Below, piece after piece: positions 12,120 through 31,053 of a stretch of 32,000 bases of DNA. Below the pieces are notes generated by a model, which saw nothing but the letters and a program-made list of their open reading frames with translations, made no database searches and was not told the DNA's origin. The stretch covers positions 450,001-482,000 of the forward strand of contig NC_003364.1 of assembly GCF_000007225.1 (NCBI RefSeq). The letters run 5' to 3'. Within the stretch, counting starts at the first letter, position 1, and every line of letters begins with the position of its first letter. This stretch comes from Pyrobaculum aerophilum str. IM2. GTDB taxonomy: Archaea > Thermoproteota > Thermoprotei > Thermoproteales > Thermoproteaceae. Position numbers and translations under genes: made by a program.

Positions 12120-12610
12120 AGCCTCTCGCCAAGCCCCTTCACGAATTTTTTAACCCTTTCGGCGAGCTCTCTTACGTCTTCCTCCACTTGATCCACACGC
12201 GAATACTTACTCAATAGGCCGCCCTCATCCAGCCCGTTGTATTGCACTTCGTGTAGATTTAATGCCATCGCCGTCAGCAATGTAATTTCGTCGCCATATA
12301 CGCCTTTTAATACGCGGGCGATCTCCCACATTTTCCCAGTGGGCATTAACGCAATAAGCCAGTCGGCCAGTTCCACCTCTGCCCCCTCGCGCGTAACAAC
12401 ACGTCCCTTAAACTTAGACGCAACCACATCTCTGGCCAGCCCTGCCGCCGCGGCTAAAGCGGCTTTCCACGCTTGAAAAGCCTTGCCGGCCGCATTTCTG
12501 TGCAACCCCTCTTCAAGAAACCGCAGAGCTAAGTCGGCCTCAACTAGCGCCTCGGAGATTCTGATCTCTACATACCTCCTTATATCTCTCCAAGGGTATA
12601 CGATTTGCAC
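12104..12610 (-). CDS. PaREP1-family protein (all-helical, HEPN/KNTase_C-clan-like)
   Basis: 168 aa with a GTG start. I recognise the pattern ..YVEIRISEALVEADLALRFLEEGLHRNAAGKAFQAWKAAL.. as the Pyrobaculum PaREP1 paralogue family. A TATA-like aaatttaaaag lies about 25 nt upstream. Confidence 0.7.
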   Translation of the reverse strand: MQIVYPWRDIRRYVEIRISEALVEADLALRFLEEGLHRNAAGKAFQAWKAALAAAAGLARDVVASKFKGRVVTREGAEVELADWLIALMPTGKMWEIARVLKGVYGDEITLLTAMALNLHEVQYNGLDEGGLLSKYSRVDQVEEDVRELAERVKKFVKGLGERLQRLL

Positions 12611-13758: not shown

Positions 13759-16700
13759 CTAGGCGAATCTCCGGATAACTGCCAGGGCCAAGCCCCCCAC
13801 AACGCCAAATATCACGGGCTCTAAGCGCCTCAAGATCTCCGCCGCCTCCACGTTGGGATCTCTGCCTCTGGAAAGATCTCTCTCCACCAAATACCTAGCT
13901 ACTAGCGTGAGAGGAGTTGGGGTATTTGAGTACAGTCTTGAAATACCGTCCACAAGGCCCCAGTCGCCCGTCGCCACGGCCTTTTCCAAGAGGAAGAGGA
14001 AATACGGCCTTGCGTCTGGGGGCAGTAACGTTGCCGTTTTATTAGCCGCCAAGTAATTATCCAACGGAACGGCGAAGCCTAAAAACTCCGTTTTATTCAC
14101 CACGCCCATATACTCCACGTATACAGTGTAGTTGACGTAGCCCAGTTTGTCAAAATCGCCTACTATTCTCACCGTGCCGTTCACGGGAGCTCCGCCTAAC
14201 AGCGCCTTTGCCGAAAGCCCGCGGGCTGGGAAAACGGGCAATCCCCTCAACGTCCCCAGTCTTTCAAAGGAAATCTCGACAGTTAGAGAAGCCCATTTAA
14301 CCTCGGCGGAGACCCTCGTCGAGTTTGTATATGCGACCAAGCTGGCCGTACAGGGTTTTTCAAAACGTAAAACAACTGAGCCATTAAGCGGGACGCGTTT
14401 AGAGAAATTGCCACATCCAGAGATAGCCAGCGGGAGGGAGATGTTAACAAGGGGCTTTACACGGCCCACGACCTTTACCTCAACGGGGACTCCAACGACA
14501 ACAGCCTTGGGGGCCATGAGGGTGAGATTATACACGCCATATGCAACCACGGTTGTGTAATTCTCATACGGGCCTACCCGAAGTGATAAATTATACGCGC
14601 CGGGGAAGGGCGGACTTTTCACGAAAATTTCACGCTTATGGACGCCGGGGCTCAGCGCCACGGGAACAGCAGAGCTGTGGGAAACGTTGAGAGTGGCGTT
14701 TATATACAGCCCTTCGGGCACGCGGAGCGTCACGTTGAGCGTATACGGCGTATTCACCTCAACAATTACGGGCGCGGCCTCTAGGATAATGCCAGGCCTA
14801 AACAATTTAAGTGCGCCGAAGCCGTAGTCTACCAGGGCTGTGCCGTTAAAGGCAATTGCCGTAATGTTAAGAACGGCCTCGCCAGAGATCCCGCGGCCCA
14901 TAACCTTGTACGTGTATTTGGCTGGTGTCTTTACTCTTAGGAGAATGTCGACGTACTCCCCGCCCTCGTTAACAAGCCAGCGCTTTATTTCGGCGGTCAC
15001 ATTCGGCGGCGGCGCGAAAACTCGGTAGCTCAAATCCCCAAACGAAGTGTTCACACTAAACACCAGCGAGGGGCTGTAGGCAGAGGTCAAGGAAATTAAA
15101 GTCCAGTTATAGGCGCATCCGTTTGCTTGTACATTCAACACCACGCTCCTATTACCCACTGCGACGATATATTTTGCGGTTACAGATGGGTTGCAAACCT
15201 TAAGCGATACGTTAAACTCCCCCTGGAACCTCTCGGGGGTAACTTCGCCCCGTAGCAGAGAAATATTGAACTCAGGCCTCGGAAGACGCACAATTACGCT
15301 ATTTTCCCCTCCAAGCGCCTTGTGCCTTATTACAATAGTGTCGTTAAAATTATATGTTAAAATTGCCAAATTCTGCTGAATAGAACTGGCTGACACTAAT
15401 CCTGGCCCATCGAACACAATAGGCGGGGCGTTTACTACCTCAATATTATAATTAATTTTGACAAGAAGGCGGGCTTTGCCGCCCTCCACCACTGCTCCGA
15501 GCGGTATTAATTCAATTTTCAAAGATGGGGTCTTTACGTGTACTATTGTGGACAACTTCCCCACAGCGATGGTAATATCCTTTTCTTTGCCGGGTTCTAG
15601 AGAAAGGGTCGTGTTAAACACGCCGCCTTGATAATTACCATCAAGTCTTTCGTCAATTTTAACAGTGCCTTTGAAGACAGCCCAAGGGAGACCGTCGACA
15701 TTTATCGAGACATTGTATGTTATAAGGCCGCCGTTGAGGCGGGGGTTAGACAGATTCACATTAAGCGACGGGCGCCATAGGGCGAGAACCGCCGCCGTGT
15801 AGCCGTTGAACGTGACGTTTATGCTAGCCGGCAAGTCGGTGATGTTATAGACGAGGAGGCTTGAGCCAAACTGAACATACAGCTTTCCTCGCCACTTATC
15901 GAGGTCGAACTCTAATTTATAAGAGGGTTTGTAAACTGGTATCGAAGTAGACCAGTTGCCGCATCTGATGTCGATTTTTTCCCCAGGCGTACCGCTTACT
16001 TGGAAATACAAGCGGTAGGTATTGTTGCCGGCGGGCGCCAGCACGGCGATGGGCTTGAACGCCACGCCGCGGCTCGTGCCGTTGAGAGTGCATTCAATAG
16101 CCAAGGGGTTTGTATGCGAGATAGTGACGTTTATAAACCCCCATCCCCCTACGTCTAAGTATAGGGAAGTGGGGGAGACGCTGAACCTCGGCTGGGTTAA
16201 GTTTAGAAAGAGGTACCCCCAAGTGTTGTTGTACTCAATTCTCAATACATACGGCCTTAACCCGCCTGTGAAGTTGTATACGGCAATTCCGTCAGAGAAG
16301 TAGATATCTGAGCCGTTGATCTTCGCCAGCCCGCTGAGCCTTTGAAAGCCGTACTCAGCGTAGAGCTTTACGGAAATGTGGCCATCGCGGTAGACGCCAC
16401 TGAGAACTTTTGCCTTGATATTGCTATAGTAAAACACTATAGTGGGTCTCACCGTCTTACTCGAGTTATTTACTAAAGCCAAGAGAATAGTGCCGTTAGT
16501 CACAACGATTTCTCTCCCTATGGCGATATTGGACACTATATTATTAGCGCCGTCGCCCTCGACGGCGATTCTCAAAACGCCGCCGGGAGGGACGTCGACT
16601 TCGTAGTAAACAGCCGTATAGCCGTTAAACTCGGGGTATGCGCGGACGGCGCCAGGACTTACCTCTATGCGCTCCATATCTGGCCTATAAGTCACTCCCC

Positions 16701-17316
16701 CGAGATCAACCCCCTTCGGCAACGCCAAGAGAAATCTCACGTAGAGCGCGGCCGCGCCCTGTCTTGTGGAGATAACCCTCAACAAGTCTTTCCACTGCTG
16801 GGCTTGTTGTAAATACCACGCCACAACAGCGCTATACTTATACCAATCATAAACCTTATCTTCACCCAGACTAAAGGGGTCTACTTTGTAAAGCCTCTCA
16901 CTGAAGTATTTTGATGGAAAGTAGTAAACGCCTGTGGCGACAGAAGCCATAGCCTCCGGCGTTGCCTCGTCGGCCCAGAAGTAGTCGCCAGGCGCCGAGT
17001 CGTATTTAGCGAAGAATATGTGGCCGACTTCGTGGAAGGCCAGCCTTCTGGTATAGCCGGGCTTAAACCGCTGTTCTACAATACAGCCGTTTCCCAAGGC
17101 CGTATAGGCGTCGTATTGAGAGGAGGGATCCACGTAAACTTTATACTTATCCCCCTGACAAGGCGGCGCGGGGTCAAGCCCCTTGTCCTTGTAGTAGCTG
17201 TACGCCTCCTCTAAATAGTTAGCCAAAGTTTGGTCCTCGGGAATGACTACAAAGTGGTCGGTCTCTAAGGCGTATACTACGGCGACTACTGCCAGAAGCG
17301 CAATAAGGAGGCGCAC
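13759..17316 (-). CDS. Giant surface protein: signal peptide, HExxH gluzincin-like head, long sequon-rich beta region, C-terminal TM anchor
   Basis: The track ORF extends to 17466. GTG 17316 gives a canonical signal peptide (MRLLIALLAVVAVVYA/LETDHF), sits 22 nt from the TATA centre, and avoids overlapping the divergent gene. The protein has HEVGH-x17-E (WADEATPE), about 40 N-x-S/T sequons by manual count, and the C-terminus ..PVIFGVVGGLALAVIRRFA*. Confidence 0.8.
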   Translation of the reverse strand: MRLLIALLAVVAVVYALETDHFVVIPEDQTLANYLEEAYSYYKDKGLDPAPPCQGDKYKVYVDPSSQYDAYTALGNGCIVEQRFKPGYTRRLAFHEVGHIFFAKYDSAPGDYFWADEATPEAMASVATGVYYFPSKYFSERLYKVDPFSLGEDKVYDWYKYSAVVAWYLQQAQQWKDLLRVISTRQGAAALYVRFLLALPKGVDLGGVTYRPDMERIEVSPGAVRAYPEFNGYTAVYYEVDVPPGGVLRIAVEGDGANNIVSNIAIGREIVVTNGTILLALVNNSSKTVRPTIVFYYSNIKAKVLSGVYRDGHISVKLYAEYGFQRLSGLAKINGSDIYFSDGIAVYNFTGGLRPYVLRIEYNNTWGYLFLNLTQPRFSVSPTSLYLDVGGWGFINVTISHTNPLAIECTLNGTSRGVAFKPIAVLAPAGNNTYRLYFQVSGTPGEKIDIRCGNWSTSIPVYKPSYKLEFDLDKWRGKLYVQFGSSLLVYNITDLPASINVTFNGYTAAVLALWRPSLNVNLSNPRLNGGLITYNVSINVDGLPWAVFKGTVKIDERLDGNYQGGVFNTTLSLEPGKEKDITIAVGKLSTIVHVKTPSLKIELIPLGAVVEGGKARLLVKINYNIEVVNAPPIVFDGPGLVSASSIQQNLAILTYNFNDTIVIRHKALGGENSVIVRLPRPEFNISLLRGEVTPERFQGEFNVSLKVCNPSVTAKYIVAVGNRSVVLNVQANGCAYNWTLISLTSAYSPSLVFSVNTSFGDLSYRVFAPPPNVTAEIKRWLVNEGGEYVDILLRVKTPAKYTYKVMGRGISGEAVLNITAIAFNGTALVDYGFGALKLFRPGIILEAAPVIVEVNTPYTLNVTLRVPEGLYINATLNVSHSSAVPVALSPGVHKREIFVKSPPFPGAYNLSLRVGPYENYTTVVAYGVYNLTLMAPKAVVVGVPVEVKVVGRVKPLVNISLPLAISGCGNFSKRVPLNGSVVLRFEKPCTASLVAYTNSTRVSAEVKWASLTVEISFERLGTLRGLPVFPARGLSAKALLGGAPVNGTVRIVGDFDKLGYVNYTVYVEYMGVVNKTEFLGFAVPLDNYLAANKTATLLPPDARPYFLFLLEKAVATGDWGLVDGISRLYSNTPTPLTLVARYLVERDLSRGRDPNVEAAEILRRLEPVIFGVVGGLALAVIRRFA
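17020..17034 (-). other. HEVGH zinc-binding motif codons
   Basis: The reverse complement of 17020-17034 is cac gaa gtc ggc cac. A Glu lies 18 residues after the second His, within WADEATPEA (M1 / Peptidase_MA-like HExxH..E spacing). Confidence 0.7.
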
Positions 17317-17362
17317 GGATAAGCAACGACAATTATATATAAAGGTAACAGGTAAGTAGCCC
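17317..17362. promoter_or_regulatory. 46-bp divergent promoter with a perfectly palindromic TATA (ttatatataa, 17333-17342)
   Basis: The palindrome centre is about 22 nt from GTG 17316 (minus strand) and about 25 nt from ATG 17363 (plus strand). No other AT-rich element is present. Confidence 0.65.
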
Positions 17363-19285
17363 ATGGCCAGATCTGTTCTACTACTCATAGCGGTGGGAAT
17401 AGCCCTAGTAGCCGTATACGTAGTTATGCCGTCAATAAGTAAACCCCCTGAGCTCGCGACGGCCACACCTCCTCCCCCGGTGCAAACAACTCAAAAGCCA
17501 GCGGAGACTACTACGACGCCGCCAACCACAAGCACAGCCGCGGCTCCCCAGACGGTTACCAGTCAGGTGACGGCCAAAGCCCCCGAGCCGGTATACCTCC
17601 CCAAGATAGAGGCTGAGATAATTGCGCCGGCTGTTTTAAACACAACGCGGCTACCTGCGGAAATAAAATTTACAGTAATAATAAAAAACACAGGAAACGG
17701 CACTGGCTCAGTCACAGTGGGCGGGACCCGCTACGTCCTAGCTCCCGGCCAGGAAATTAGGATAAACTCCACCGCCTTGGCGAGCGCCGCGGGTAGCTAC
17801 AGCCTAGAGGCCGTGGTGAACGGGACAAGGCTCGAGAAAACCGTTAAGGTGTTTTACTACGCCCCCCGGCTGGAGGCCTTGCCAGTCGTGATAAACGTGA
17901 CTGAGCTCCCCGCCAATGTTACAATTAAAGTGATGGTGAGGAACACGGGCAACCTCACTGCGAGGGTAAAAGACGTGGAGATTAGGCCGGGAGAGGAGCG
18001 CGTAATAAACGCCAGCCTTACCGTGGAAGCCGCTGGTAATTACGTAGTTGACGTTGACGGAGTTGCAGTGCCGGTAAAGGTAAATTACTACGCGCCCAGT
18101 TTTCAGTGGAAAGTTGGCGGGCCCGGCGAGGTGGAGGCAATCCCCGGCGAGAGCTACTCAGCGTGGCTGTGGGTTAAGAACACTGGAAACGCCACTGCAA
18201 AGCTGTTAATAGACGGCAGAGAGGCAACGCTCCCTCCTGGCGGCGAGCTGAATATAACAAAACAAGTGACCGTCCGAGCCGCTGGGACTTACGCTGTTGA
18301 ATTCCACATCGCCGGCGGCTTAAACGCCACGGTTAAATACGTCATAAGGGCGAAAATTGTGGCGATAAGAGTCCAGTACGTGATATGGGCCCCCCAGCTG
18401 AGGAGGAGCTGGCCCGCGCCGAACTCAACTGAAACGACGTCTATTTCAACGCCCAACAAAACAGTAGTATTATCTTGGGGATATATAATTGAAACAAACG
18501 CCACTAGCAGGACGGTGGTGTTAGTTGTACAAGACGCAGACGGCGTCTATTACTACACGCTGAAGCCGGGGACGTCGGCGGGTAAAAACTTCACCACGAC
18601 GGTGCAAGCGCCGGGGGAAAAGATGCTGGAGATAAGAGTCAACTCAACCGCCTACCGGCTGGGGATATCCCTACAAATAACCCCGCCGAAGGTCACCATT
18701 AAAGATATCTCTAAAATAAGCTTTAAAGACGACAGACCGCTCCGGGGGGTAAAAATCACGTGCAGAGCCGGTAGCGTCTCTGCCGATATACTTCTTGATA
18801 TTTTAAGCATCTCGGGTACTTTGACTTACACGGCGACTGGCAGATCTATCTCGGGCAGTATAACAGTGGCGGCCGCCGGTGGTACTTACACAGGTGACTA
18901 CAGCGGGAAAATAGAAGGCAACGGGGGCCAGATGTCAGTGAACGTAATAGGTCGCAATATTTACGTAGAGTTTACAGTATCTCCCCTGGCTATAAATAGA
19001 GTGCTTGTCGACGGAGTTCCTTATAGTTGTAACGTGCCTATACAGCTAATACCCACTATTCTCTACAGCGGCAAGCCGACGGCAGTAGACGAGCCGGCCA
19101 CACAATACGTCTATAGGTTGATAACTGTGTTTGCCAAAAGCGATAGCGACAAGCCGCAGTCAGTGGTGTGGAACGGGGAATACGTCGAGGTAATAGACAA
19201 AGGGGGGGACGCCATTAGAGTATACTTTAAAGACGGCGCTGTGAGAGTAGAAGGCGCCTTGTCGGCCACACTCGTTATATCTTAA
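17363..19285 (+). CDS. Secreted or anchored protein with a Thr/Pro linker and three CARDB-like repeats
   Basis: 640 aa. The N-terminal hydrophobic segment is MARSVLLLIAVGIALVAVYVV. A T/P-rich linker covers residues ~27-76. Three ~80-90-aa repeats each contain [KR]NTGN-x-T and end near YYAP. I counted at least 16 N-x-S/T sequons in the first ~440 aa. Confidence 0.8.
   Translation: MARSVLLLIAVGIALVAVYVVMPSISKPPELATATPPPPVQTTQKPAETTTTPPTTSTAAAPQTVTSQVTAKAPEPVYLPKIEAEIIAPAVLNTTRLPAEIKFTVIIKNTGNGTGSVTVGGTRYVLAPGQEIRINSTALASAAGSYSLEAVVNGTRLEKTVKVFYYAPRLEALPVVINVTELPANVTIKVMVRNTGNLTARVKDVEIRPGEERVINASLTVEAAGNYVVDVDGVAVPVKVNYYAPSFQWKVGGPGEVEAIPGESYSAWLWVKNTGNATAKLLIDGREATLPPGGELNITKQVTVRAAGTYAVEFHIAGGLNATVKYVIRAKIVAIRVQYVIWAPQLRRSWPAPNSTETTSISTPNKTVVLSWGYIIETNATSRTVVLVVQDADGVYYYTLKPGTSAGKNFTTTVQAPGEKMLEIRVNSTAYRLGISLQITPPKVTIKDISKISFKDDRPLRGVKITCRAGSVSADILLDILSISGTLTYTATGRSISGSITVAAAGGTYTGDYSGKIEGNGGQMSVNVIGRNIYVEFTVSPLAINRVLVDGVPYSCNVPIQLIPTILYSGKPTAVDEPATQYVYRLITVFAKSDSDKPQSVVWNGEYVEVIDKGGDAIRVYFKDGAVRVEGALSATLVIS
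17594..18352 (+). repeat. Three tandem CARDB-like protein repeats (17594-17866, 17867-18097, 18098-18352)
   Basis: The units align by eye: ..FTVIIKNTGNGTG..AAGSYSLEAVV..VKVFYYAP / ..IKVMVRNTGNLTA..AAGNYVVDVDG..VKVNYYAP / ..AWLWVKNTGNATA..AAGTYAVEFHI.. Confidence 0.7.
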
Positions 19286-19295
19286 GAGGAGAGAA

Positions 19296-19307
19296 AACTT
19301 TATAAAC
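19296..19307 (+). promoter_or_regulatory. TATA box of the giant gene
   Basis: aactttataaac is centred about 25 nt upstream of ATG 19327, inside the 41-bp gap after the 640-aa gene. Confidence 0.6.
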
Positions 19308-19326: not shown

Positions 19327-22300
19327 ATGCATAACCAAACAAAGACAGTCCTGGCACTCCTACTGCTAACAACCCTCGCGGCAATTGCATTCGGACAAGC
19401 CCTGCCCTCGGTCTTCGACGTAATACTCCAAATAAACGACGCAAGGGGGGCATACGGCACGGGCTACGACCTCTACGCCCCCTGGATCAAGAGCCTAGTT
19501 AACTACCCGCCCTACAAATTCGCCGCCGGCAAGAACTTCACTTTAATCATACGCGAGACGGCCTCAAGTCCACGATATCCCTCACAGTTCCAAGACTACA
19601 GAGTCTCTGCAGTGGCTAATGACACGGGCTTCGTTAGATTCAATATCAACATACCCGGAGGCGTAGACGTAACTAAAAAGACGAACTGGTACGTGGCTAT
19701 AGTAGTTGAGTGGCCAAGGCCGGGCACGTACTTCCTCATATACAACCAGACTTTCACAAACACGGCATTACTAGAAGTGATTGGAAACTTAAGCGGCAGG
19801 CCTGAATTATCTGGGACAAAGGTTTACACAGGGCCATGGGGCGTTCTCAAAGTAACAAATGGAGCGGGAAGATTCGGCAACTTGTCATCCAGCGTAATTC
19901 ACACCTTCTACATTGGGGTGAATACGCTGGGTAAGCAGTTCACGCTCACCTTTACGAGAACTGTAACAATTGCCGGTACTACAATAACTCTTGACGACAA
20001 CGTTGCCCCGGCCACTGGCCCCACTAATTACGTCCTTCAATACGATCCGTTAGTGACGGCGGTCTTCGGTCCCTTCACATATCTAGCAACTTACGTAACA
20101 TCCCTCGGCAAGGCTGGCACCACTTGGGATACGTACAAAGTAGCAATTGACCCGACACAAGTAGCCTATAATCATTACATCTACATTACAATTGAGGGAT
20201 CAAGGGGAGTAGTTATACAGAGCAAAAACGACGCATTCTCAACGGTCGGCAAGTTGAGATTCGTTGCTCAGACGTTAAACAAGACGGCAGGCCCAGGCAC
20301 CGGCGTCGCCGTGCCGATGTCAGGTGGATTAATTATTTGGAACATGACGATGTATACGGTCAAAATAACCGGCCTCCTTGACTTAAAGGGCAACCCGATA
20401 TTCAACCCGGAGAACTTCAGGTACAAGATCCAGTTAAAAGTCGGCGACAGCTGGGTCACGCTTGACAGGGCACCAGCCTCCTGGAGGCTGGCGCTTGGCG
20501 ATGTAAAAGCCGTCCTAAACCAAGTATGTGGCACTATAAGTTCGATCTCAGACATCATGAACTGCTACAGGACTCTCGGCCCCGATGGCTTTAGAAGGGC
20601 AGTATTAAACCTATACGAGCCCGTTACGTTATCTAGATTAGGCGGCTTGCTCCAGCTGACTAACACAGATGTTAAAGTGTCCACGGTAGATTTAACTACC
20701 AAGCTGGTAGTGGAATACTCTTACACCGCCGGCCAGGACACGGTAAAAGCAATTGTCTTAGAGGTAGCTCTCGCTGAGCCGGCGAACTTCCAAGGAGTTC
20801 TTAACGTATCGGTCTTACCCATTCAAATAAGGCTTTGGCGTTGGAGTAATTTATCACTACCTCCCGCAGTTCCAATACCCAGGGAGTACTTCTACACAGA
20901 TCCGCTTGACTTGGCGTCGTTGAGATTTGAAGTCAGCGGAGATCCAATGTATCTCAACAGAATGGCCTACGACGGCGCTGTAACATATGACCCGTGGCTC
21001 GGCCAAGTGATATGGACTTTGCCGCCGTATCAGCCAGCCCCCGGCTTAGTGGGTAACGTAAGGGCGTCATTACTCTCTCTGTTCAACGCCAGCGGTTATT
21101 TGCCCATGCCGACACTAGTTGCCAACTTAACCACTGGAGGCAAGATAGAGTACTTCAACTACACAGACGCAGCTGCTAATGGAGATTACTTCTACAAGTT
21201 CCAAATAGGGCTTGTGGGTAGCTACGCCTATAAGTTCAGAATATACAGCGGAGATGTACTAGTGGGCACGGCAAATCTTGTGGCGTACTACCCAATCATC
21301 AACGCATCTGGTCTGTTATTCCACTCAAAAGCTGGCGATGTCTTAGTCGCGCAGTATGACGACAACAATCGTAGAGATATGTATGCGTTGCAAATTGTAC
21401 AGCCGGGCAGATTCTACGACAGAGAACACGTTTTGCACATAGCAATTGCTAGAATATTCCAGAACATATTAATGCGCGACGCCTGCGGCAATCCAGTTTA
21501 CGGAGTCTCGGCCGGCCTAGCGGGCGCCAGCCTCTCGCTTGTAATTAACATCGGCGGGAAGAACATAACTATTGCCAAGTTGCCGGTTGGGAGCGAGGTT
21601 CCAGTTGATATTATGGTGCCAATTGACGAGTGGGGCAACCCGCAACTTGACATTAAAGGAGGCTACGTCAGCGCCTATGCGGTCTTGAACTACTTCGGCT
21701 ATACGTTGTACCCAGTGGATAACTTGACCAAGATCCCAGCCAGCGCCCCGGTGTGGTTCAACATCCCCGTGAAATACGGCGTAGTGAGGAAGCCGGTGAT
21801 CTACTTGCCCATTGCGCCGTTGCTCTTCAGGACTTGGAGCCAAGCCGTTTCTGTAGACTACGACCCGCTGAAGGAGCCGTTAATGGGCTTTGTCGTCAGA
21901 GCCTTTAGCACTGCATCAAACGCCGAAATGGCCCGCAGTATCTCTAATAAAGACGGCTATGCTTACGTGCCGAACGTGCCGATAGGTGTGCCGTTTAAAG
22001 TGCAAGTTAGGACTATTGTGCCCTCCTCTGATAAGCGCTGGTCTTATACATACGACCAGATTAGCAGAAGCAACGACTATGCCTCTTACGCCAGCGCCTT
22101 GGGCTTCTCGCCCGGCGACGATGTCTATACGCTGGGCACGCGCGGATATATTGACAGCGGGCTGGTGGTGTTCGATAAGGTGTTTGTGATAGACTCCTCT
22201 AATGCTACAAAGTACATCTGCGCCAAGCAGGCTATTGACTTGCCGCTGGAGGTTTACGACCTCGTGGTCAGAGTATTTGACAAGACTGGGAAGTATCTGC

Positions 22301-25300
22301 TTAGATCCCAGCCGGTATTCCTCGGGCCCTATCCACAAGCCACGAGGCCGGTTCTCTTAAACGTGACGTTAGTCCTCGCCGACGAGTACAGCCCCTACGA
22401 CAAGGCCTCAATATGGAGAAACTACACTCTCCGCGACTTCAAGATATTGACCGACTACCGCGCCATTGGCATAACTGGCATGAGGAGCATATACCTCAAT
22501 CTGGCGTCTAAGTACTTAGACGTTGCGAAGAAGGCATTAGGATGCCCGAGCTATACGATTGCCAACTACTCGTCTGCGATTAACGCATATGCCCTGGCGG
22601 CCATGGCCGGCTACGTCGCCAATGCGTCCACTGACAGATATGCTGCCGTGTACTTACTGACATCGCAACAGCCAAAGGACATCATTGACCTATGCCAGAT
22701 GAAGCCGTACCAGGCGGGCGCCGCTGAGATAGCGAGGCTGTTCATTAAAGGCCAGAGGCTGAGATTTGTGGTATGGTACATGGGCCAGAAGGTGTTTGAC
22801 GATTACGTAACTATCACAGGGCCGCTTGTGGACATTAAAGCTGATGTATACCCGGTAAACGTAACAACCTACACTAAGAGCATGAGGCTACCTGTAGACA
22901 CCTTCGTCGGCTTTACTATTACTGACGTCTACCTCGGCCTTGCGCTCAACAAGACAGACGGCATGTTCGCAAACAAGTCGCTAGTGCCGAAGTTAATAGC
23001 TCCCTTCGACGAGATGTACAGGACGTACACCTTATCATACCTACTGGCTAATGAGCTCGCCAAGTCTGCAGGACAGCCATACAACGACAATGTGACCGCG
23101 TTCTATTCAACTGGAACGAAAGCCGCCCAATGGCTCTACGGCAGATACATACCCGCCCAGTTTGGAGGCGACTTTGTGTACTTGCCGAACATTATGCTAC
23201 TCCGCAACGCCACCGTTGCCAAATACTTATTTACAACTCTAAATACGTATACGGTAACCCAGACACAATACCGCAAGCCAATCGATATACCTGCTGACAG
23301 CGGCACAGTGCAGGTGCCCGCTTCGCAGAATCTGAGTATTGTGCTGACAGGCGCTAAGATTGTAATAGATCCCAGCTCTAACTCCACCTATGTGAAGCTC
23401 ACGGCATATAACGGCACTGAAAACGTTAACTTGACTCTCAGCGGCTCGCTAGTGTCACTGAACGGATCACTTGTCAGGAACTACCTCAATACTGTGTATG
23501 CAAACTACTCCATTGTTGTTACGGCTACTGCCAAGTGCGGAAGTATACTCATTGTTCCTGGCGATGATGACATTACAGTGCAAGTTACGGTAACTGCCGG
23601 CAACTGTCCCGCCACTGTGACTTACAGCGCCACTAACAGGACCTATAAGATCATCACATTAACGACTCAGTCAATGCCAGGCGTTGAGTATGCTGTGAGT
23701 TTTGACAGGTGGTTCCTTGTACCTTATGACTGGTCGCTTGCCCAGTATAGCATACTGTACCGCGCTACAAACGTTGTGGAGAGGAATGATGTACTAACCG
23801 TGCTGGCGTTCACCGGCAGATCACGCATATGCGCCTCTCCAACTGGCGTCACGACCGCCGGCGAAGACGATCGCTATACCTATGAGCTTAAATTAGCCGG
23901 CGTCCAAGTTGTCAACAACCGCACATTGCGCGTGGAGTTGCCTTGGAAGATTGGAGGTGGCGGTAAGGCCATGGTTAACATTACAGCTTATTTCGCCAAC
24001 GGCACTAAGATTGACTCTGTGGTTTACAACTTAACTCAGATGCTGGCGGACGCCAGGGGCAACACCGTGGTGGTGACGTTGCCGTTGAACTTCGGCAAAG
24101 TCGGGGCCAAGGCGTATGACATCGTAACTTCTGGTGCGACTGTGAGATACGTCATTACTTTTGACATGTACGATCCGAGGAGCGGTCCCAGGTCAGTGTG
24201 CGCTACTACATTGGTGCCGCTGGCGGCCAATTATACCACCGTTTCGATGTATGAATCTCAAGTGCCAGTCGCTCCTGGCGCCGCTGAGCGCATCGACTCG
24301 CAGACTGTAGTTTACGCCATTGATCCCGATCTGTCTGTTCGCAACGGCTTCAACGAAACCTTTAACAAGTACGGAGGCTTCGGAACGCCTATTACATATG
24401 TAGTGAAGTCAGGCGAGGTGGCCTTACTGCCGTCGTGGTACCACAAGACCTCAGTTGCCGGCTCTAGAATTGCCAGAATTTGGATTATTGCCGCCAACCG
24501 CGATCCGGGCCAAGGCCCTGCCTTGGGCACAAAGTACATCAACTACACTTTGAAAGACGACAAAGTAACTATCAACGTCTATAAGTTCGAGAAGTACCTA
24601 GTGGTCAACTATGTGCCTAATGTGAGTCCGGCTGGCTGGACGACACAGACGTACCTAGACGAATTTGACGGTAGCGGCAGGATAATCGGCCTCGGCTTCG
24701 GCACATCTGGCACCAGCGCATTAGTGTTAAGCAACTACACTAAGGTCAATATGTGGAACTCCACTGACATGTGGCTGGCGGGCGGAGTGTTCAAGTTGCC
24801 CACTGTGGCCCTAGACGCGTTGACAGTACAGAACAACGCCGACTTCCCAATTGTGGTGTCCTCGCTGAACGTGAAGTACGGTGATTACAAGTACAACATA
24901 CCCATGTCGCCGTTGCGCGTTGATGCCAATAAGATTGCCACTGCGCTGTTAAACGGCTACGGATTTGGAAGGACGTACATGTTCAATATTACTGACGTGT
25001 GGAACTTCAAGCTCGTACAGCCGAATTACCAGTACGGCCTAAGCGTATACCACGCTGGCCTTGTTGACACGGCTAAGTACTTCGGCCTTGGCGATGTGGA
25101 TGTGACTAAGTACTTGAGGCCGCTTGAATCCAAATACGTCGTGCAGAACGTGCTGTACGCCAGCCACGCCGAGACGAGCGACTGGACGTACAATATCTTA
25201 GGCGGCAAGATAACTGAGACTACCAGAGGCACTTGGGGCAATCTGATAGTTGCGTCCAATGACACTGACTACAAGTACGCATTCACATATCCGACTCTGC

Positions 25301-27306
25301 CGCTGAAGGAGATACGCGACTGGAACGACAGGCCGCTGGCTAACCAGACTATCGCGTTATTTGACCGCAACGGCAGGTTATACGCTGTGGTATACAGCGA
25401 CAGCTTTGGCAAACTGGTGTACCCGTTGCCCGACATATCTGCAATCGGCCAGACGCCCGTGGTGAGAGTGTCTTGGTACTTCGGCTACTTAGTGGAGTTG
25501 CTGAGAGGGAAGCCCGAGTTCACTATATGGATATACGACCAGCTAATCCAGAGAGATGTAACAGAGCTGGGCGATGCGTCCACTAACAGCAAGATCAGGA
25601 CATACGTCTATCCGCTGACTGTCACTGTTAAAGACGACGCGGGCAGGCCGTTGACGAATATGTACGTAAAGATAGTGGACACGTCGACTATCGGCCAGCT
25701 TGTGAACGCCGCAAATAAGACTGGCGCTGACGGCGGCGCCCAGGTGGTAGATTTGAGGATATCGAAGTATTCAAGCGGAGTGTTGTCGCAAGTGCCCGGA
25801 ACCAGCTACTACTACTACGTATACGATCCCAGCGGCGCTCTCGTGGCAGTTGGGAGGTTTGAAATACAGCGCGGTGCCTCGGTGCCGTCCACTGGCTGGA
25901 ACGTGGTCGCTACCGTGAGATATGCCACCGAAATACCCGTGAAGAACAGCGCGACGAGCGGCTACTTGCTGGTCAAGGGCGTTGAGTTCCTCAATGGCAC
26001 TAAGAAAGACGTCAAGATACCGTTCACTATATCTGGCGGCGTAATGGCTCTACGGGGTAAAGTGCCGATATCAGTTGAGTACCCCGTGGACATATATATA
26101 ACTCACGTGACGCTTGGCGGTCAAGAGGTCCCGGTGAAAGGAGGTCAAGTGCTCGCGTTCAGCGGCAAGACCACAGACCTGCTAGCAGGTCTTGACTTTG
26201 CGGAGCTTGGACTGACCGGCATAGTGACTATTCAAGCGGTTGATTCAACCGGCACTCCCAGATCTGACTGGACGGTGCAGGTGCTGTACGGCAATATAAC
26301 GGCGGCCCAAGGCGCAGGACAGATACAGGTTGTGCTCCCGAGAACAGATATATTAGACATACCTTACACAGTAAAGGTAATTACTAACGCCATGACGCCA
26401 GACGGTAAGGCTTTGATCAAGACGCAGACTTTAGAATTGAAGCAGAAGGCAATGGCGTTGCAAATACCGGTCTCAACAGTTAAGGCTGTGGTTCAAGTAG
26501 TTGACGGCTTTGGTAACGTGAGAAACGACTGGCCCGTCGCGATCGAAAATGTGGCTACCGGAATGGGCCAGATTACTACTGAGCTGGTGGAGGGCGAGAG
26601 GTATGTGGTTAGGGGATCTGGCCTTGGCTTCACTAACACCACTGCTGTGGTGGCCACGGGCCCGCAGTTGGTGGTGAGGGTTGTGATCCCCACTGGCAAG
26701 ATCGTGGCGCAAGTCGTTGACGGCTTTGGCAATGTGAGAAACGACTGGACTGTGCAAATTGTCGGCGTTGCCAGCGGCCAGGGCACTGTCGGCCCTGTTG
26801 AAGTGCTCGCCGGGCAGTACACAGTAAAGACCACAGTATTCGGCAACGACTTCACCCACACAGTAAACGTAGGCGTAGGCCAGACAGCCCAGGCGCAAAT
26901 ACAAGTGCCGACGGCCAAACTCAGCATAACCGCCGTAGACGACGACAAAAAGCCCATTGACCAATACGTGGCTCAAGTGGACATAACCGGGCCTTTGACG
27001 CTTTCCTACTCCACCGCCCCGAAGAATATCGAAGTGCTTGCCGGCACCTACACAGTTAAGGTGACCGCGCTGGGCAAAGACGCCACCGCCCAAGTGTCTC
27101 TGAACGCCGGCGAGGTGAAGAATATACAAGTCGTCGTTCCGGGCACCGCTGGTCTGGACTTCCTCGGCACTAGAATTCCGTTGCCAACGCTGGTGCTATA
27201 CGCCCTGTTACTGCTGGTGGTTGTTGTGATACTGGCGATATTGATAATTGAGTACAACAACTGGAGGAGGAGGCGCTTGATGCAGATTTTAGCGCCGCCC
27301 AAGTAA
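19327..27306 (+). CDS. Giant (2659 aa) surface glycoprotein-like protein with a C-terminal stalk, TM anchor and basic tail; candidate S-layer or pillar protein
   Basis: A single uninterrupted ORF. The signal peptide is [29 protein letters not shown] counted about 50 N-x-S/T sequons by hand. CarboxypepD_reg-like segments are scattered through it, with four tandem copies at the C-terminus. It ends in a TM helix followed by [18 protein letters not shown]. Confidence 0.9.
26218..27147 (+). repeat. Four tandem ~73-87-aa beta-sandwich (CarboxypepD_reg-like) repeats forming the membrane-proximal stalk
   Basis: Unit boundaries are 26218-26478, 26479-26697, 26698-26916 and 26917-27147. The shared pattern is x-V-x-x-V-D-x-x-G-x-x-x-x-D/N-W-x-V..L-x-x-G-x-Y-x-V-K..I-x-V-P. 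Units 2 and 3 share a 33-nt stretch with 31/33 identity (26500-26532 vs 26716-26748). Confidence 0.8.
27181..27249 (+). other. C-terminal transmembrane anchor of the giant protein
   Basis: Codons read directly as [23 protein letters not shown], followed by EYNNWRRRR. Confidence 0.85.
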
Positions 27307-27314
27307 GCCCCACC

Positions 27315-27363
27315 TTTTTTCCGTATTACACCCCAACTTTTTTAACTCCCCTCTTTCTTTTTT
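27315..27363 (+). terminator. Three oligo-T tracts (T6 at 27315-27320, 27338-27343, 27358-27363) downstream of the giant gene
   Basis: Archaeal intrinsic termination uses oligo-T runs. These three T6 tracts fall in the 59-bp gap right after the stop codon. The middle tract may also be part of the next gene's TATA. Confidence 0.5.
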
Positions 27364-27365
27364 CC

Positions 27366-27959
27366 ATGTTGGGGCATGATCTCGTGTCTCACGTTAGGTC
27401 TGCTATGTTGAATAAGCTCAGGGGCTTGCCCGTGCCCGAGTCTCACCCAGTTCTTTCCCAGCTCCGGGCAGGCGTTTTTGTAACTGTGGAGTCTATAGTG
27501 AGGTCTGGGGGCTACGAGAGGCGCGAAGTGAGGGGCTCTCTGGGGATTGTCGAGCCTTTTAAAGATTTGGCTTTTGACTCGGCTAAAGTGGCCGCTAAGC
27601 TGGCCCTTTCCATCCCCAGGTTCACGGAGTTTGACCTCAGGCGGTCTGTTATTGAAGTTACTCTGGTGGAGGGGCTTAGGGAGTGGGGCGGGGATTTGGG
27701 GAGTTTTGAGTGGGGCCGCGAGGGCGTTTATGTAATAGCTGGGAATAAGAAATTAGTAGTGCTTCCCCAAACTATGATTGAGCGCCGCCTATTAGGCCCT
27801 GCCCTGTTGCGGTATATAGAGTCTATGGTCGGCGCGCCGGAGAGGATGTATAAATTCGCAACTCGAATATTCTACGAGCTAAGGCCTGAGGGGGAGGTCA
27901 TCGAACGGGAGCTCTGGAAGTCCCGCGTTATTAGGCAATACCTAGAAGTTGTGCGTTAA
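27366..27959 (+). CDS. AMMECR1-domain protein (AmmeMemoRadiSam system protein A family), divergent motif
   Basis: 197 aa. The AMMECR1 layout is visible as GVFVTV..VRGSLG..PRF..IEVTLV..GVYV..LPQT. The usual RGCIG Cys is Ser here (TCT at 27537-27539). Confidence 0.8.
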
Positions 27960-27988: not shown

Positions 27989-28780
27989 ATGTACATAGAA
28001 TTATTCGTGGTGGCCGGCCAGAACACAGACCTTGAAAATTCTCTGAAAAAAGTGGTAGAGGATCTCAGGGGGCAAGTGCAGAGGCCCGACAAGATTAGGC
28101 TGGCCACGGTGAAGATTAGGCCTGACGCCGTTGATCAAGTATTGCGGCTTGTGGCAGAGCCTCCTGACAAAGTCCCGCCTCATTATAGGTCTTTAGTGAA
28201 TATGTTGAAAAAATACGGCATTTCGAAATTCCCGGCGGTTGTAGTTGACGGCGTTAAAGTGGGAGAGGGCAGCGTTCAAGTTGAGGACGTTTTGCGCGCT
28301 GTTCAAGAAAGGGCGCGCGCCGAATTCCCCGAGTTGTCGACGCTGGAATTAGTGCCGCCTAAGCCGGTTCCCTCTCCGGTTCAACCTGTGGCCGTTGAGC
28401 CGGCGCCTCCGCTTGAGGTTAGGCCAGTGGCGCCGCCCGAGCCCCCCAAGCCGTTAACGCCTCCCGCCGTACCCCCGCCGCCTGAGGTGAGGCCGGTAGA
28501 GCCTCCTAAGCCCTTAATACAACCGCCTCCTGAGGTAAAACCGGCGGAGCCTCCAAAGCCCGTAATGCCAATTGCGCCTCCTCCGCCTCCCCCGCCAGCT
28601 CCTCCGCCCCCTATCTCTCGGCCTTTCACTGCTGTTGTTAGGCTCGTGTTGGGGAGGCCTGATAATTGTTCTGAGTGCGCCTACTACGGCCAGTTAACTT
28701 CCCGCTGTTTCTTATTCGGCTTTGCCGTGGCGAGTCCGGCCTCGCCGCCTTGTAAACAATATGTTAGAGGTGGAGGTTAA
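27989..28780 (+). CDS. Uncharacterised protein: alpha/beta N-domain, proline-rich repeat linker, C-terminal 4-Cys cluster
   Basis: 263 aa. A TATA-like gcttatataca lies about 25 nt upstream. Residues ~122-211 are Pro-rich, with three PPxEV[RK]P[VA]..EPPKP units. The C-terminus has CSEC-x9-C-x14-C. Confidence 0.7.
   Translation: MYIELFVVAGQNTDLENSLKKVVEDLRGQVQRPDKIRLATVKIRPDAVDQVLRLVAEPPDKVPPHYRSLVNMLKKYGISKFPAVVVDGVKVGEGSVQVEDVLRAVQERARAEFPELSTLELVPPKPVPSPVQPVAVEPAPPLEVRPVAPPEPPKPLTPPAVPPPPEVRPVEPPKPLIQPPPEVKPAEPPKPVMPIAPPPPPPPAPPPPISRPFTAVVRLVLGRPDNCSECAYYGQLTSRCFLFGFAVASPASPPCKQYVRGGG
28403..28570 (+). repeat. Three tandem 16-24-codon proline-rich repeat units
   Basis: The units are APPLEVRPVAPPEPPKPLTPPAVP / PPPEVRPVEPPKPLIQ / PPPEVKPAEPPKPVMP. 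The repeat is also visible at the DNA level (cctgaggt[ga]a[ga][ga]ccgg..gagcctcc[ta]aagccc). Confidence 0.8.
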
Positions 28781-29291
28781 GTACCGGGCCGACCTCTCCC
28801 TCGTTAAAAACCGGCTTCAACACCTGGGGTTTTCCCCTGTATCTGTGGTGTATGAAGAGGATGTGTATTTTCAACATCCCTGTAGGGATTTCTCTGCCAC
28901 AGATGAGGCTCTTAGAGTCAGAATTTCTGAGGGGAGGGTCACAGTGACTTATAAAGGCCCCAGGATGGGGGCTGGGGCTAAGACGCGGCTGGAGGTGTCG
29001 GCGCAGGCCAGCGGGGAGGTTGTGGAGCTTCTCAACAGGCTTGGCTTTAAGGCAGTTGCCGTTATAAAAAAGCGCCGTGAGTATTACCGCAACGGCGACG
29101 TTTTACTCTCTTTAGATTACGTAGAGGGGCTGGGGGAGTTTGTGGAGATTGAGAAAATGGTAGAGGAGGAGTCTCAAATTGCGTCGGCTATTGAGGAGAT
29201 TAGAAGACTGGCCTCTACCTTGGGCTTAGCCGAGGAGGTGCGGGAGACTTATTTAGAGTTATATTTCAATACTTTTAAATCGAGTGGGTAG
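28761..29291 (+). CDS. CYTH-domain protein (CyaB-like triphosphate tunnel metalloenzyme)
   Basis: Starting at ATG 28761 gives MLEVEVKY.. with the CYTH ExExK signature at the N-terminus. ..ALRVR.., ..TYKGP.. and ..GEFVEIE.. follow. The track start at 28722 adds an Arg-rich extension that overlaps the previous gene further. Confidence 0.8.
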
Positions 29292-29298
29292 TATATAC

Positions 29299-31053
29299 GT
29301 GCAGTTTGGGGAGTTAGTTAAGGCACTTGCGGCAATTGAGGCCACCACTCAGAGGACAACAATGGTCAAGTTGCTCGTCTCGCTTTTTAAAAAGGCGTCT
29401 CCAGAGGAGGTCGGGAAAATTGTGTACTTCATCCTCGGCGATTTGAGGCCTCCTTGGGAGGGGGTTGAGTTGGGGGTTGCTGAGAAGCTCTGTTTGAGGG
29501 CGGTTTCTAAGGCCACGGGGGCGGCCGTATCCGAGCTGGAGGCTTTGTATAAGAAAACGGGCGACGTGGGCGAGGCGGCGCGTCGCGCCTTGGCCGCGTC
29601 TAAACGCCCTGGTTTACTGGCCTTTGGCTCTCAAAAGCCGCTTGAGGTGTCTGAAGTTTACGACACGTTGTTAAAAGTGGCCAGGGCAACGGGGGAGGGG
29701 GCTCAAGATATGAAAGTGGCTTTGCTGTCCTCTCTCTTTGCCAGGGCGACTCCAGAGGAGGGGAAGTACATTGCCAGATTTGTTGTGGGGAAGTTGAGGC
29801 TGGGCGTCGCCGACATGACTATTATTGAGGCGCTTTCAGACGCCTACGGAGTTAATAAGGAGGCTTTAGAAAAGGCGTATCACATATACCCCGACTTAGG
29901 CCGGCTGGCTAAACACGTCGCCGAGGGCAAGCCGCTTGACGAAATAAGAATTACTCCCGGCGTGCCGGTGCTTCCCATGTTGGCGCAGAGGCTGTCTTCC
30001 GCCTCTGAGATTTTGGCTAAGCTGGGCGGCTCGGCGATTTGCGAGTATAAATACGACGGAGAGAGGGCCCAGATACACCTCACTCCAGGCGGCGTGAAAA
30101 TATTCAGCAGGAGGCTTGAGGACATCACCCACGCCTATCCCGATGTTGTCAAGGCGGTTAAAGAGGCTGTGTCCGCAAAGGAGGCGATTTTAGAGGGGGA
30201 GATAGTGGCTGTTGATCCCGATACTGGGGACATGTTGCCTTTTCAAGAGCTTATGCATAGGAAGAGGAAACACGATGTGGCAACAGCCGTGGAGCTGTAC
30301 CCCACAGTGTTGTATTTATTTGACGTCTTGTACGTCGACGGCGAGGATTTAACAGAAGAGCCTCTTATATACAGGAGGGTGAGGCTTTCTGAAATTGTCT
30401 GCGAGACTGACAAGGTGTCAATAGCCAAGTGGAGAATTTTTGACAACGCCGAGGCTGTTGACGTCTTTTTCCACGAGTCTGTGTCTATGGGCACTGAGGG
30501 CTTGATATGTAAATCGCCTTCTTCAATTTACGAAATGGGGGCCAGGGGCTGGAACTGGATTAAATACAAGCGGGATTACCGTAGCGAGATGATAGATACA
30601 GTAGACCTCGTTGTAGTAGGCGCCTTCCACGGCAGGGGCAAGAGGGCCGGCCTATACGGCGCCTTTCTCTTGGCGGCATACGATCCTTCCACTGACATGT
30701 TTTATACTGTGTGTAAAGTTGGAAGTGGGTTTACAGACGCCGATTTGAAAAAAATGTACGAGATTTTGCAGCCGTTTAAAATCCCCCACAGACACCCCAG
30801 AGTTGTGTCTAAAATGGAGGCGGATGTGTGGTTCGTGCCCCAGGTAGTTATTGAGGTTATAGGGGCTGAGATTACTCTGTCGCCTCTCCACACTTGCTGT
30901 TTAGGCGCAGTGCGCCCGGGGGTTGGGCTGGCGGTTAGATTCCCCAGATTTACTGGCCGTTATAGATCTGACAAATCCCCAGAGCAAGCAACGACGGTGG
31001 CGGAGATGTTAGAGCTGTACAAGAGGCAGAAAAAAGTGGTTCAGCCCGAGTAG
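29299..31053 (+). CDS. lig: ATP-dependent DNA ligase
   Basis: The adenylation motif is [13 protein letters not shown] (KxDG). The track start is GTG 29284. I prefer GTG 29299 ([10 protein letters not shown].., 584 aa) because the TATA-like ttttaaat (29273-29280) lies about 22 nt upstream of it but only about 7 nt from 29284. Confidence 0.95.

Follow-up and report, generated by a model that had tools for sequence, protein, structure and literature searches.

The surface layer (S-layer) of Pyrobaculum arsenaticum is formed by one protein of 2,667 amino acids (aa), PySLP (A0A7L4PAH2, HC235_06945), and was seen as a hexagonal array, 37 nm tall, by electron cryomicroscopy (cryo-EM) and electron cryotomography (cryo-ET) (bioRxiv 10.64898/2026.08.21.746120). 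According to the same preprint, mass spectrometry of purified envelopes singled out PySLP, which surpassed all other proteins in abundance as well as size, and it was the only candidate that explained the 5.75 Å cryo-EM map together with a subtomogram average obtained in situ. The polypeptide starts with a 23-residue signal peptide, followed by a lattice-forming core and a crown, and ends with a pillar of eight immunoglobulin (Ig)-like domains (Ig7–Ig14), a β-hairpin, a transmembrane helix, which the authors take as the membrane anchor, and a basic tail whose last residue is Lys; many homologues were found in Pyrobaculum (bioRxiv 10.64898/2026.08.21.746120). For P. aerophilum, a similar p6 S-layer on pillars has been reported by electron microscopy according to a review, which records pillar-supported p6 S-layers for the genus Pyrobaculum. 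Proteins of this kind are therefore already known: TTX_1887 of Thermoproteus tenax (2,663 aa) was proposed as S-layer protein in 2011, being the largest protein, rich in S, T and N and equipped with a signal sequence and a C-terminal transmembrane helix (PMC3189178), and the experimental demonstration followed in 2026 with PySLP. TTX_1887 falls into the PySLP family, but lacks the crown (bioRxiv 10.64898/2026.08.21.746120). Here we analyzed a stretch of 32,000 nucleotides (nt) from P. aerophilum str. IM2 (contig NC_003364.1, positions 450,001 to 482,000; referred to as the window, with coordinates counted from its first letter), which contains the colossal gene PAE0829, the candidate gene for the S-layer protein (SLP) of this organism.

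PAE0829 occupies an open reading frame (ORF) bounded by an ATG at 19327 and a TAA at 27304–27306, with 2,659 codons and no internal stop, and its translation was 100% identical to PAE0829/Q8ZYD3 ("hypothetical protein", Pyrobaculum aerophilum IM2). The single uninterrupted 8-kb ORF described in the initial annotation, which had been made from the letters of the window, was thus borne out by the coordinates. The accompanying remark that other genes of the window encode 136–634 aa did not hold, since a gene of 640 aa is present in the window as well, together with an ORF of 1,235 codons, whose product would measure about 1,185 aa once the start is corrected. PAE0829 is named in no searchable paper, nor in the main text of the preprint. 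End-to-end alignment with PySLP yielded 2,024 identical positions in 2,683 columns (75%) with 1% gaps, and A0A7L4PAH2 was confirmed as a member of PAE0829's own homologue set. Strong hydrophobicity was confined to two segments, residues 7–26 and 2615–2646, the first of which overlaps the predicted signal peptide (residues 1–23). Hydropathy and the model of the C-terminal part were in agreement with the type-I layout (signal peptide, transmembrane helix, RRRR tail) annotated before. Both proteins share their approximate length (2,667 aa for PySLP, 2,659 aa for PAE0829), the predicted 23-residue signal peptide, the crown region, a pillar of about eight Ig-like domains, the hairpin, the transmembrane helix, an identical tail and the gene neighborhood, while they differ in cysteine content (14 in PySLP versus 10 in PAE0829), in the net charge of the crown (+6 versus +1) and in the hairpin sequence (LDLFG versus LDFLG). 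PAE0829 shows the defining PySLP traits that are accessible to in silico tests, i.e., homology, signal peptide, Ig pillar, the succession of hairpin, transmembrane helix and tail, and neighborhood.

Because PAE0829 is a full-length, syntenic and 75%-identical orthologue of PySLP, we assign it as the S-layer protein of P. aerophilum. We estimate the probability of this assignment, including the export, pillar and transcription steps proposed below, at roughly 0.93. Orthology and synteny likewise support the earlier proposal of a membrane-anchored glycoprotein of the S-layer or envelope, which follows the line of argument used in 2011 for TTX_1887 (PMC3189178). The pre-protein would be exported via its 23-residue signal peptide and become heavily N-glycosylated in its outer two-thirds, while its one membrane helix, located at the C-terminus and followed by a basic cytoplasmic tail of 18 residues, would keep it in the cytoplasmic membrane. 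Six copies would bundle their approximately eight C-terminal Ig-like domains to form a hollow pillar, which would raise the N-terminal and middle lattice domains, with the variable crown on top, about 37 nm above the membrane. Hexamers joined by trimeric contacts would then give rise to a p6 lattice, the rigid exoskeleton of the rod-shaped cell. At the level of transcription, the gene's own promoter, composed of a transcription factor B recognition element (BRE) and a TATA box, would drive an approximately 8-kb leaderless mRNA, oligo-T tracts past the stop codon would end the transcript, and the coding strand would have been purged of T-runs that could end transcription early.

Several points weigh against this assignment. 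The role of PAE0829 is assigned by orthology, the lattice having been shown in P. arsenaticum only, and the PySLP preprint is not peer-reviewed and reports a 5.75 Å map without side-chain resolution. Moreover, PAE0829 lacks four of the 14 family cysteines, so that its stability may differ from that of PySLP, and with a crown charge of only +1 its surface chemistry may differ as well. The AlphaFold2 model of the middle region (residues 829–1835) was weak, with a mean predicted local distance difference test (pLDDT) score of 55.6 and confident segments only at residues ~851–938, 1318–1438 and 1498–1628. Finally, monocistronic, leaderless transcription is predicted from sequence, and the preprint suggests a possible operon.

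Database searches with PAE0829 retrieved 33 homologues, all from Pyrobaculum, the full-length ones aligning over 99–100% of the query. The family contained 22 full-length orthologues of 2,633–2,705 aa, and intact genes were present in P. islandicum, P. oguniense, WP30 and P. arsenaticum, all of which are reported to bear an S-layer. Loss or decay of the gene in S-layer-bearing relatives, which the initial annotation had regarded as decisive against an envelope function, was therefore not what we found. A profile search with the 22-sequence alignment in a word-indexed database returned the same 33 proteins, while an exhaustive search reached Thermoproteus-type relatives. When residues 24–1223 were used in the exhaustive search, only 32 representative clusters were obtained among 1.84 billion proteins. 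The full-length members found by exhaustive search were all colossal (2,348–2,772 aa), those with names belonged to Thermoproteus or Thermoproteaceae, and the Thermoproteus-type relatives were 39–46% identical to PAE0829 in the N-terminal region. One colossal SLP copy was detected in each complete genome scanned, the scan being made by two peptide patterns only. No Pfam or NCBIfam model reached its threshold on PAE0829, and a sequence search of the PDB gave zero matches. The CarboxypepD_reg-like segments suggested previously could not be substantiated: PF13620 scored 17.2 bits on the whole protein and 18.8–21.6 bits on single domains, below the Pfam gathering threshold of 32.3 bits, and the first of the segments put forward (~852–938) matched nothing. 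PF13620 is precomputed on six of the 33 orthologues and belongs to a compatible fold class (prealbumin/Ig-like sandwich).

The middle region, which harbors the crown, showed no credible fold neighbor in the PDB when its model was submitted to Foldseek. This absence fits the statement of the preprint that the crown has no detectable relatives (bioRxiv 10.64898/2026.08.21.746120). Foldseek matches of the middle region to a spike protein, GH98 and birnavirus VP2 were discarded as noise (probability ≤ 0.38). In the PySLP family, the crown is regarded as specific to Pyrobaculum and as positively charged. The crown region was present and alignable between PAE0829 and PySLP, and residues ~1318–1438 were modeled as β-rich with a pLDDT of 87–92. 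Identity to the orthologues dropped to 55–60% in residues 1301–1500, compared to ~80% overall, as expected for an exposed face, whereas the last 59 residues represented the most conserved part of the protein (92%). Computed from sequence, the net charge of the crown varied from −5 to +6 across the orthologues. With 50 N-x-S/T sequons, PAE0829 exceeded composition-preserving shuffles (18.9 ± 4.2) by a factor of 2.6, and about 30 of these sites were kept in at least 19 of the 22 orthologues. Per 100 aa, the crown has 3.45 sequons and the lattice regions have 1.9–2.2, while the density falls to 1.0 for the upper stalk and 0.5 for the last four repeats, a gradient that agrees with the earlier description of a sequon-rich protein whose sites thin out toward the membrane. 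Only two sequons, N2323 and N2437, are located in the last four repeats; the latter corresponds to the "NTT" that had been named as the sole site of the last three repeats.

One difference between PAE0829 and its relatives concerned the cysteines. All of the 21 other full-length orthologues contain 14 cysteine residues, whereas PAE0829 contains 10, the missing ones being replaced in Y50, G333, S1644 and S1767, each by a single-nucleotide change. Across the family, and inside a cluster sharing at least 95% identity with P. aerophilum, cysteines were lost strictly pairwise (50/333, 1404/1427, 1502/1625 and 1644/1767), and no sequence spanning both sites of a pair lacked just one partner. The P. 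aerophilum lineage was found to be polymorphic, with 14, 12, 10 or 8 cysteines. Since the residues were co-lost in an all-or-none fashion, this covariation points to four putative disulfides, 50–333, 1404–1427, 1502–1625 and 1644–1767. The other six family cysteines are invariant, so that co-loss carries no information on their pairing. The 5.75 Å map of PySLP could not confirm disulfide pairings (bioRxiv 10.64898/2026.08.21.746120). The deviating cysteine content of PAE0829 is variation within the PySLP family and does not exclude the protein from it.

We then considered how the gene might be transcribed. With its TATA core about 25 nt before the ATG, the element AGAGAAAACTTTATAAAC leaves no space for a 5′ untranslated region, and it directly follows the stop codon of the upstream gene (19283–19285). 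In five Pyrobaculum loci, the motif AGAGAAAACTTTWTAAAC occurred at a constant distance from the ATG, while the intervening spacer was variable. Likewise, T-tracts after the SLP stop codon were kept in eight loci. The TATA-like element, taken by the initial annotation as a dedicated TATA box, and the three T6 tracts that it pointed out are hence present and conserved in orthologous loci. The middle tract, TTTTTTAA, is located 21–28 nt 5′ of the AMMECR1 ATG at 27366 and, judging by this position, probably doubles as the TATA box of that gene. Within the 7,977-nt ORF, the sense strand was devoid of runs of five or more T. Runs of four or more T were found four times, compared to 12.9 ± 3.0 in synonymous-codon shuffles, and none of 1,000 shuffles was as low; runs of four or more A were less depleted (10 versus 17.3). 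The depletion of T-runs is consistent with selective removal of sites at which oligo-T termination could set in too early, the gene being long and heavily transcribed. Taken together, the conserved promoter element and T-tracts and the scarcity of T-runs support a leaderless unit of its own over the "potential operon" suggested for the SLP neighborhood in the preprint (bioRxiv 10.64898/2026.08.21.746120). The SLP gene is thus probably transcribed separately, giving an mRNA of ~8 kb. The monocistronic leaderless mRNA postulated earlier gained support from conservation and T-run depletion, and stays at the level of a prediction from sequence. A scan for sigma-70 promoters and hairpin terminators gave a chance-level result and was set aside as inapplicable to an archaeon.

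The order of genes in the window is cysteinyl-tRNA synthetase (CysRS), the 1,235-codon gene (minus strand), the 640-aa Ig-like gene (plus strand), the SLP gene (plus strand), AMMECR1, a thioredoxin (Trx)-like gene, CYTH, DNA ligase and a 168-aa gene (minus strand). From the Ig-like gene to the ligase, this order was identical in seven loci and was seen again in all Pyrobaculum loci that were fetched, including those of P. oguniense TE7 and WP30, and the preprint lists a corresponding neighborhood (Ig-like membrane protein, AMMECR1, Trx-like, adenylate cyclase/CYTH and DNA ligase; bioRxiv 10.64898/2026.08.21.746120). The authors of the preprint speculated that the hexameric pillar might, in addition to its structural role, act as a conduit for the uptake of extracellular DNA and be linked to the neighboring ligase; they report a channel of ~12 Å through the pillar and a positively charged surface in P. 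arsenaticum (bioRxiv 10.64898/2026.08.21.746120). In agreement with such a link, the ligase was syntenic in every locus examined. However, synteny that is confined to a single narrow clade says little in favor of a functional connection, and the ligase resembles a housekeeping replicative enzyme according to its score of 544 bits against TIGR00574 and its architecture of N-terminal, adenylation and OB-fold domains. This enzyme and the products of the other downstream genes appear to be cytoplasmic, and a scan of three of these proteins (AMMECR1, Trx-like and CYTH) revealed no transmembrane-like segment. Furthermore, the positive charge of the crown is not conserved, and the SLP gene is flanked by a conserved putative promoter of its own and terminator-like tracts. 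We therefore regard the additional function as a conduit as improbable.

The end of the protein deserved particular attention. In PySLP, a conserved hairpin carries a Phe that faces the lumen of the pillar (bioRxiv 10.64898/2026.08.21.746120); the corresponding LDLFG reads LDFLG in PAE0829, and P. islandicum-type sequences exhibit LDIGG without any Phe. The 18-residue cytoplasmic tail was identical in 22 of 22 orthologues. Comparison of the tail codons from eight loci revealed synonymous variation in 10 of 18 codons and non-synonymous variation in none, demonstrating that the tail is invariant under purifying selection at the protein level; the synonymous variability also rules out an overlapping nucleic-acid element as the cause of the invariance. 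From its W onwards (14 residues), the tail was exact even in relatives that are only 39–44% identical in the body of the protein, and the most distant family members retained the pattern EYxxWRR[RK]RL..PP..R. In these alignments, the module of hairpin, transmembrane helix and tail is the most conserved part and the strongest signature of the family. Since the positive-inside rule accounts for RRRR, but not for the invariance of LMQILAPPK, we tentatively propose that the tail could serve as a docking motif for a cytoplasmic partner, e.g., a cytoskeletal or shape-determining factor, although we consider the odds to be clearly against it.

The same module could be understood in a different way, namely as a cleavable sorting signal similar to PGF-CTERM/archaeosortase signals, in which case the mature protein would be lipid-anchored or otherwise anchored. 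Its tripartite layout (PGTAG motif, hydrophobic helix, Arg cluster) and its extreme conservation would be in line with this assumption. Exosortase and archaeosortase signals have short basic tails, unlike that of PAE0829, which comprises 18 residues and is invariant to the last Lys. In addition, PGTAG is located 13 residues before the helix, and neither PGF-CTERM nor any other CTERM model of NCBIfam matched even at E ≤ 0.1, which upholds, for known motifs, the earlier statement that no such signal is present. The preprint models the helix of PySLP as an anchor (bioRxiv 10.64898/2026.08.21.746120). Cleavage of the module thus appears very unlikely, even more so than the role in DNA uptake, and we prefer the assignment of PAE0829 as an S-layer protein held in the membrane by its own helix.

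In order to characterize the stalk, residues 1836–2659 were modeled with AlphaFold2 (mean pLDDT 79). The model was all-β, with approximately 8–9 sandwich domains followed by the hairpin and a long helix. Four segments (residues 2296–2382, 2383–2456, 2457–2530 and 2531–2612) were related to each other with mutual scores of 82–124, compared to 40 ± 5 in the null distribution, and a weaker fifth repeat was present upstream of them. The "four-repeat stalk" described previously is thus real in sequence, but the stalk as a whole comprises about eight β-sandwich domains. Foldseek comparison of the stalk with the PDB returned tandem Ig/CnaB arrays, including Gram-positive pilins, the TIE protein and titin. 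The fold search that had been suggested as a check also matched known S-layer proteins, i.e., Haloferax volcanii csg (7ptp_A, E 4.2e-6) and SlaB (8qox_B, E 4.5e-5, probability 0.99). TM-scores were low (0.1–0.25), as is to be expected of beads-on-a-string proteins. Neither the stalk model nor that of the middle region matched a protease fold or the head fold of an adhesin, so that the unrelated function considered in the initial annotation received no support. That PAE0829 might be a giant adhesin or pilus-like stalk, while another protein forms the P. aerophilum S-layer, is the least probable explanation of all: the best stalk matches were indeed Gram-positive pilin and adhesin stalk domains (TIE 6fwv, E 5.6e-13; PitA, SpaC, BcpA), and the lattice role was assigned by orthology, but the matches are generic CnaB/Ig-like spacers with the low TM-scores mentioned and include neither an adhesive head nor a catalytic domain, and PAE0829 is the one full-length orthologue, and a syntenic one, of PySLP, whose role was assigned by experiment.

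Comparison with other S-layer systems helped to delimit the S-layer protein assigned here. Like PAE0829, csg of H. volcanii (7PTP/7PTR) is an Ig-rich, glycosylated, hexamer-forming S-layer protein made of a single polypeptide; it is anchored through the PGF-CTERM/archaeosortase lipid route. It contains six Ig-like domains, whereas PySLP contains 19 (bioRxiv 10.64898/2026.08.21.746120). In Sulfolobus SlaA/SlaB (8QOX), the lattice is likewise held ~30 nm above the membrane on an anchored stalk, and the Ig region of SlaB resembles the stalk of PAE0829, but lattice and stalk are separate proteins and SlaB features a long coiled coil (bioRxiv 10.64898/2026.08.21.746120), whereas PAE0829 combines both parts in one polypeptide. 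Tetrabrachion of Staphylothermus marinus also unites a lattice part and a long stalk (~70 nm) in one polypeptide (bioRxiv 10.64898/2026.08.21.746120). Its stalk is a tetrameric coiled coil, while that of PAE0829 is all-β: residues 1836–2659 displayed no helix except the transmembrane helix in the model and no Pfam match, arguing against a coiled-coil stalk. PAE0829 is thus neither of the SlaA/SlaB, the tetrabrachion nor the PGF-CTERM type, though it would resemble them in raising a lattice high over the membrane by means of a stalk. The coordinates of all features are compiled in Table 1.

Table 1. Features of the PAE0829 locus (window coordinates; residue numbers refer to PAE0829)
Feature	Position	Strand	Basis or remark
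Upstream 640-aa gene, N-terminally anchored, sequon-rich, Ig/CARDB-like repeats	17363..19285	+	"membrane-associated Ig-like domain protein" of the preprint
BRE/TATA-like element AGAGAAAACTTTATAAAC	19290..19307	+	sequence; putative promoter function
PAE0829 S-layer protein gene, orthologue of PySLP	19327..27306	+	ORF; 2,659 aa, ~291 kDa
Predicted signal peptide, residues 1–23, mature start QALPS	19327..19395	+	hydrophobic window 7–26; alignment with predicted signal peptide of PySLP
N-terminal lattice-forming region, residues 24–828 (Ig1–Ig5 and trimer-stacking domains of the preprint)	19396..21810	+	mapped by alignment
Codon 50, TAC (Tyr), Cys in 21 of 22 orthologues	19474..19476	+	putative partner: codon 333, GGT (Gly), 20323–20325
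Middle lattice region, residues 829–1835 (trimer-stabilizing, plate, crown and Ig6 domains of the preprint)	21811..24831	+	mapped by alignment
Crown domain, residues ~1304–1453	23236..23685	+	most variable and most sequon-dense part
Codon 1644, TCT (Ser), Cys in 21 of 22 orthologues	24256..24258	+	putative partner: codon 1767, AGT (Ser), 24625–24627
Stalk/pillar, ~eight tandem Ig-like β-sandwich domains, residues 1836–2608	24832..27150	+	AlphaFold2, Foldseek
Four sequence-similar Ig-like repeats, residues 2296–2612, membrane-proximal half of the pillar	26212..27162	+	pairwise local scores
Membrane-proximal β-hairpin, residues 2609–2618, carries F2612	27151..27180	+	strands at local positions 774–777 and 780–783 in the model
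Single C-terminal transmembrane helix, residues ~2619–2641	27181..27249	+	hydropathy maximum 3.57; helix 2619–2654 (local 784–819) in the model
Cytoplasmic tail, residues 2642–2659, RRRR at 2647–2650	27250..27303	+	invariant across Pyrobaculum
Three T6 tracts (27315–27320, 27338–27343, 27358–27363), likely oligo-T terminator	27315..27363	+	exact coordinates; putative function
AMMECR1	27366–27959	+	
Trx-like/Pro-rich gene	27989–28780	+	
CYTH gene	28722–29291	+	
ATP-dependent DNA ligase	29284–31053	+	

Among the neighboring genes, the divergent one at 13759–17466 on the minus strand encodes a second large, putative surface protein. Its 1,235-codon ORF as listed probably begins ~50 codons too early; if the start is moved accordingly (13759–17316), the apparent overlap with the 640-aa gene disappears. 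The resulting protein of ~1,185 aa contains 39 sequons, an N-terminal signal peptide and a C-terminal transmembrane segment ending in RRFA. An HExxH motif (AFHEVGHIF) is followed by DEAxPEAMA, and both were kept in all eight orthologues, while no Pfam, NCBIfam or PDB match was obtained. The gene accompanied the SLP gene, in synteny, in all Pyrobaculum loci, yet was faster-evolving (39–62% identity). It may code for an S-layer-associated surface zinc metallopeptidase; the text of the preprint does not mention it. A near-palindromic TATA element, TTATATATAA, was located at 17333–17342, ~25 nt from the ATG at 17363 and ~21 nt from a GTG on the minus strand (17316–17314) that would begin the neighbor's signal peptide, (M)RLLIALLAVVAVVYA. 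Judging from this spacing, TTATATATAA may drive two divergent leaderless genes.

A relative of the pillar domains was encountered elsewhere in the genomes. In each Pyrobaculum genome scanned (loci L013–L019), a separate locus encodes a 208-aa secreted protein with a signal peptide and no transmembrane segment, which is ~40% identical to SLP residues 1995–2208, corresponding to two upper-pillar domains ("RDWNDRPL..."). In P. oguniense (L019, 9944–10570), this gene adjoins an ATPase_2 gene (PF01637), which shares 57% identity with the one at 12711–13721 of the window. The latter (minus strand) and a PaREP1-family gene (12104–12610, minus strand) separate CysRS from the surface-protein cluster. 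PaREP1 homologues occupied this place in only some loci, and an ATPase_2 homologue in none of the SLP loci that we fetched, indicating a variable insertion point next to a gene order that is fixed otherwise.

Downstream of the SLP gene, the Trx-like protein combines an N-terminal Trx-like fold without CxxC, a Pro-rich linker of ~100 residues made of PxP repeats and a C-terminal CSEC...C...C knot. A role as extracytoplasmic disulfide catalyst for the SLP was rejected as unlikely for this protein, since it possesses neither a signal peptide nor a transmembrane segment, and no CxxC in its Trx-like part, and is thus cytoplasmic. The listed TTG start of CYTH is located 59 nt inside the Trx-like gene. 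As most CYTH orthologues align only from residue 5–11, the true start is probably the Met codon 14 (~28761). The window further contains a Memo-like gene (6451–7296, plus strand) and a MoaA-type radical SAM gene (2869–3801, minus strand), which lie within 25 kb together with the AMMECR1-family gene. The last of these is a weak member, scoring 30 bits where the AmmeMemoSam_A cut-off is 99 bits. The Memo-like and AMMECR1 genes recall the AmmeMemoRadiSam trio, but are dispersed, and the resemblance is probably coincidental. Unrelated to the SLP, the gene at 8748–10652 (minus strand) encodes a protein with KH, β-CASP and RMMBL domains and a KH match to FttA/aCPSF1, and is the archaeal gene for this transcription-termination factor.

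As the kind of protein was known before, the value of the present analysis lies in the annotation, the map of paired cysteines, the invariant tail and the evidence on the transcription unit. PAE0829, "hypothetical" since the genome was sequenced, can now be labeled as S-layer protein in a hyperthermophile that is widely used as a model. The evidence for a transcript of its own is relevant to the "potential operon" that would include the DNA ligase. In the P. aerophilum lineage, two to three of the seven possible disulfides appear to be dispensable. Neither the positive charge of the crown nor the Phe ring of the hairpin is genus-wide, which weakens anion binding and constriction as general features. 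If the tail does have a cytoplasmic partner, this partner would connect the cell interior with the hexagonal S-layer lattice, either for mechanical coupling or for positioning.

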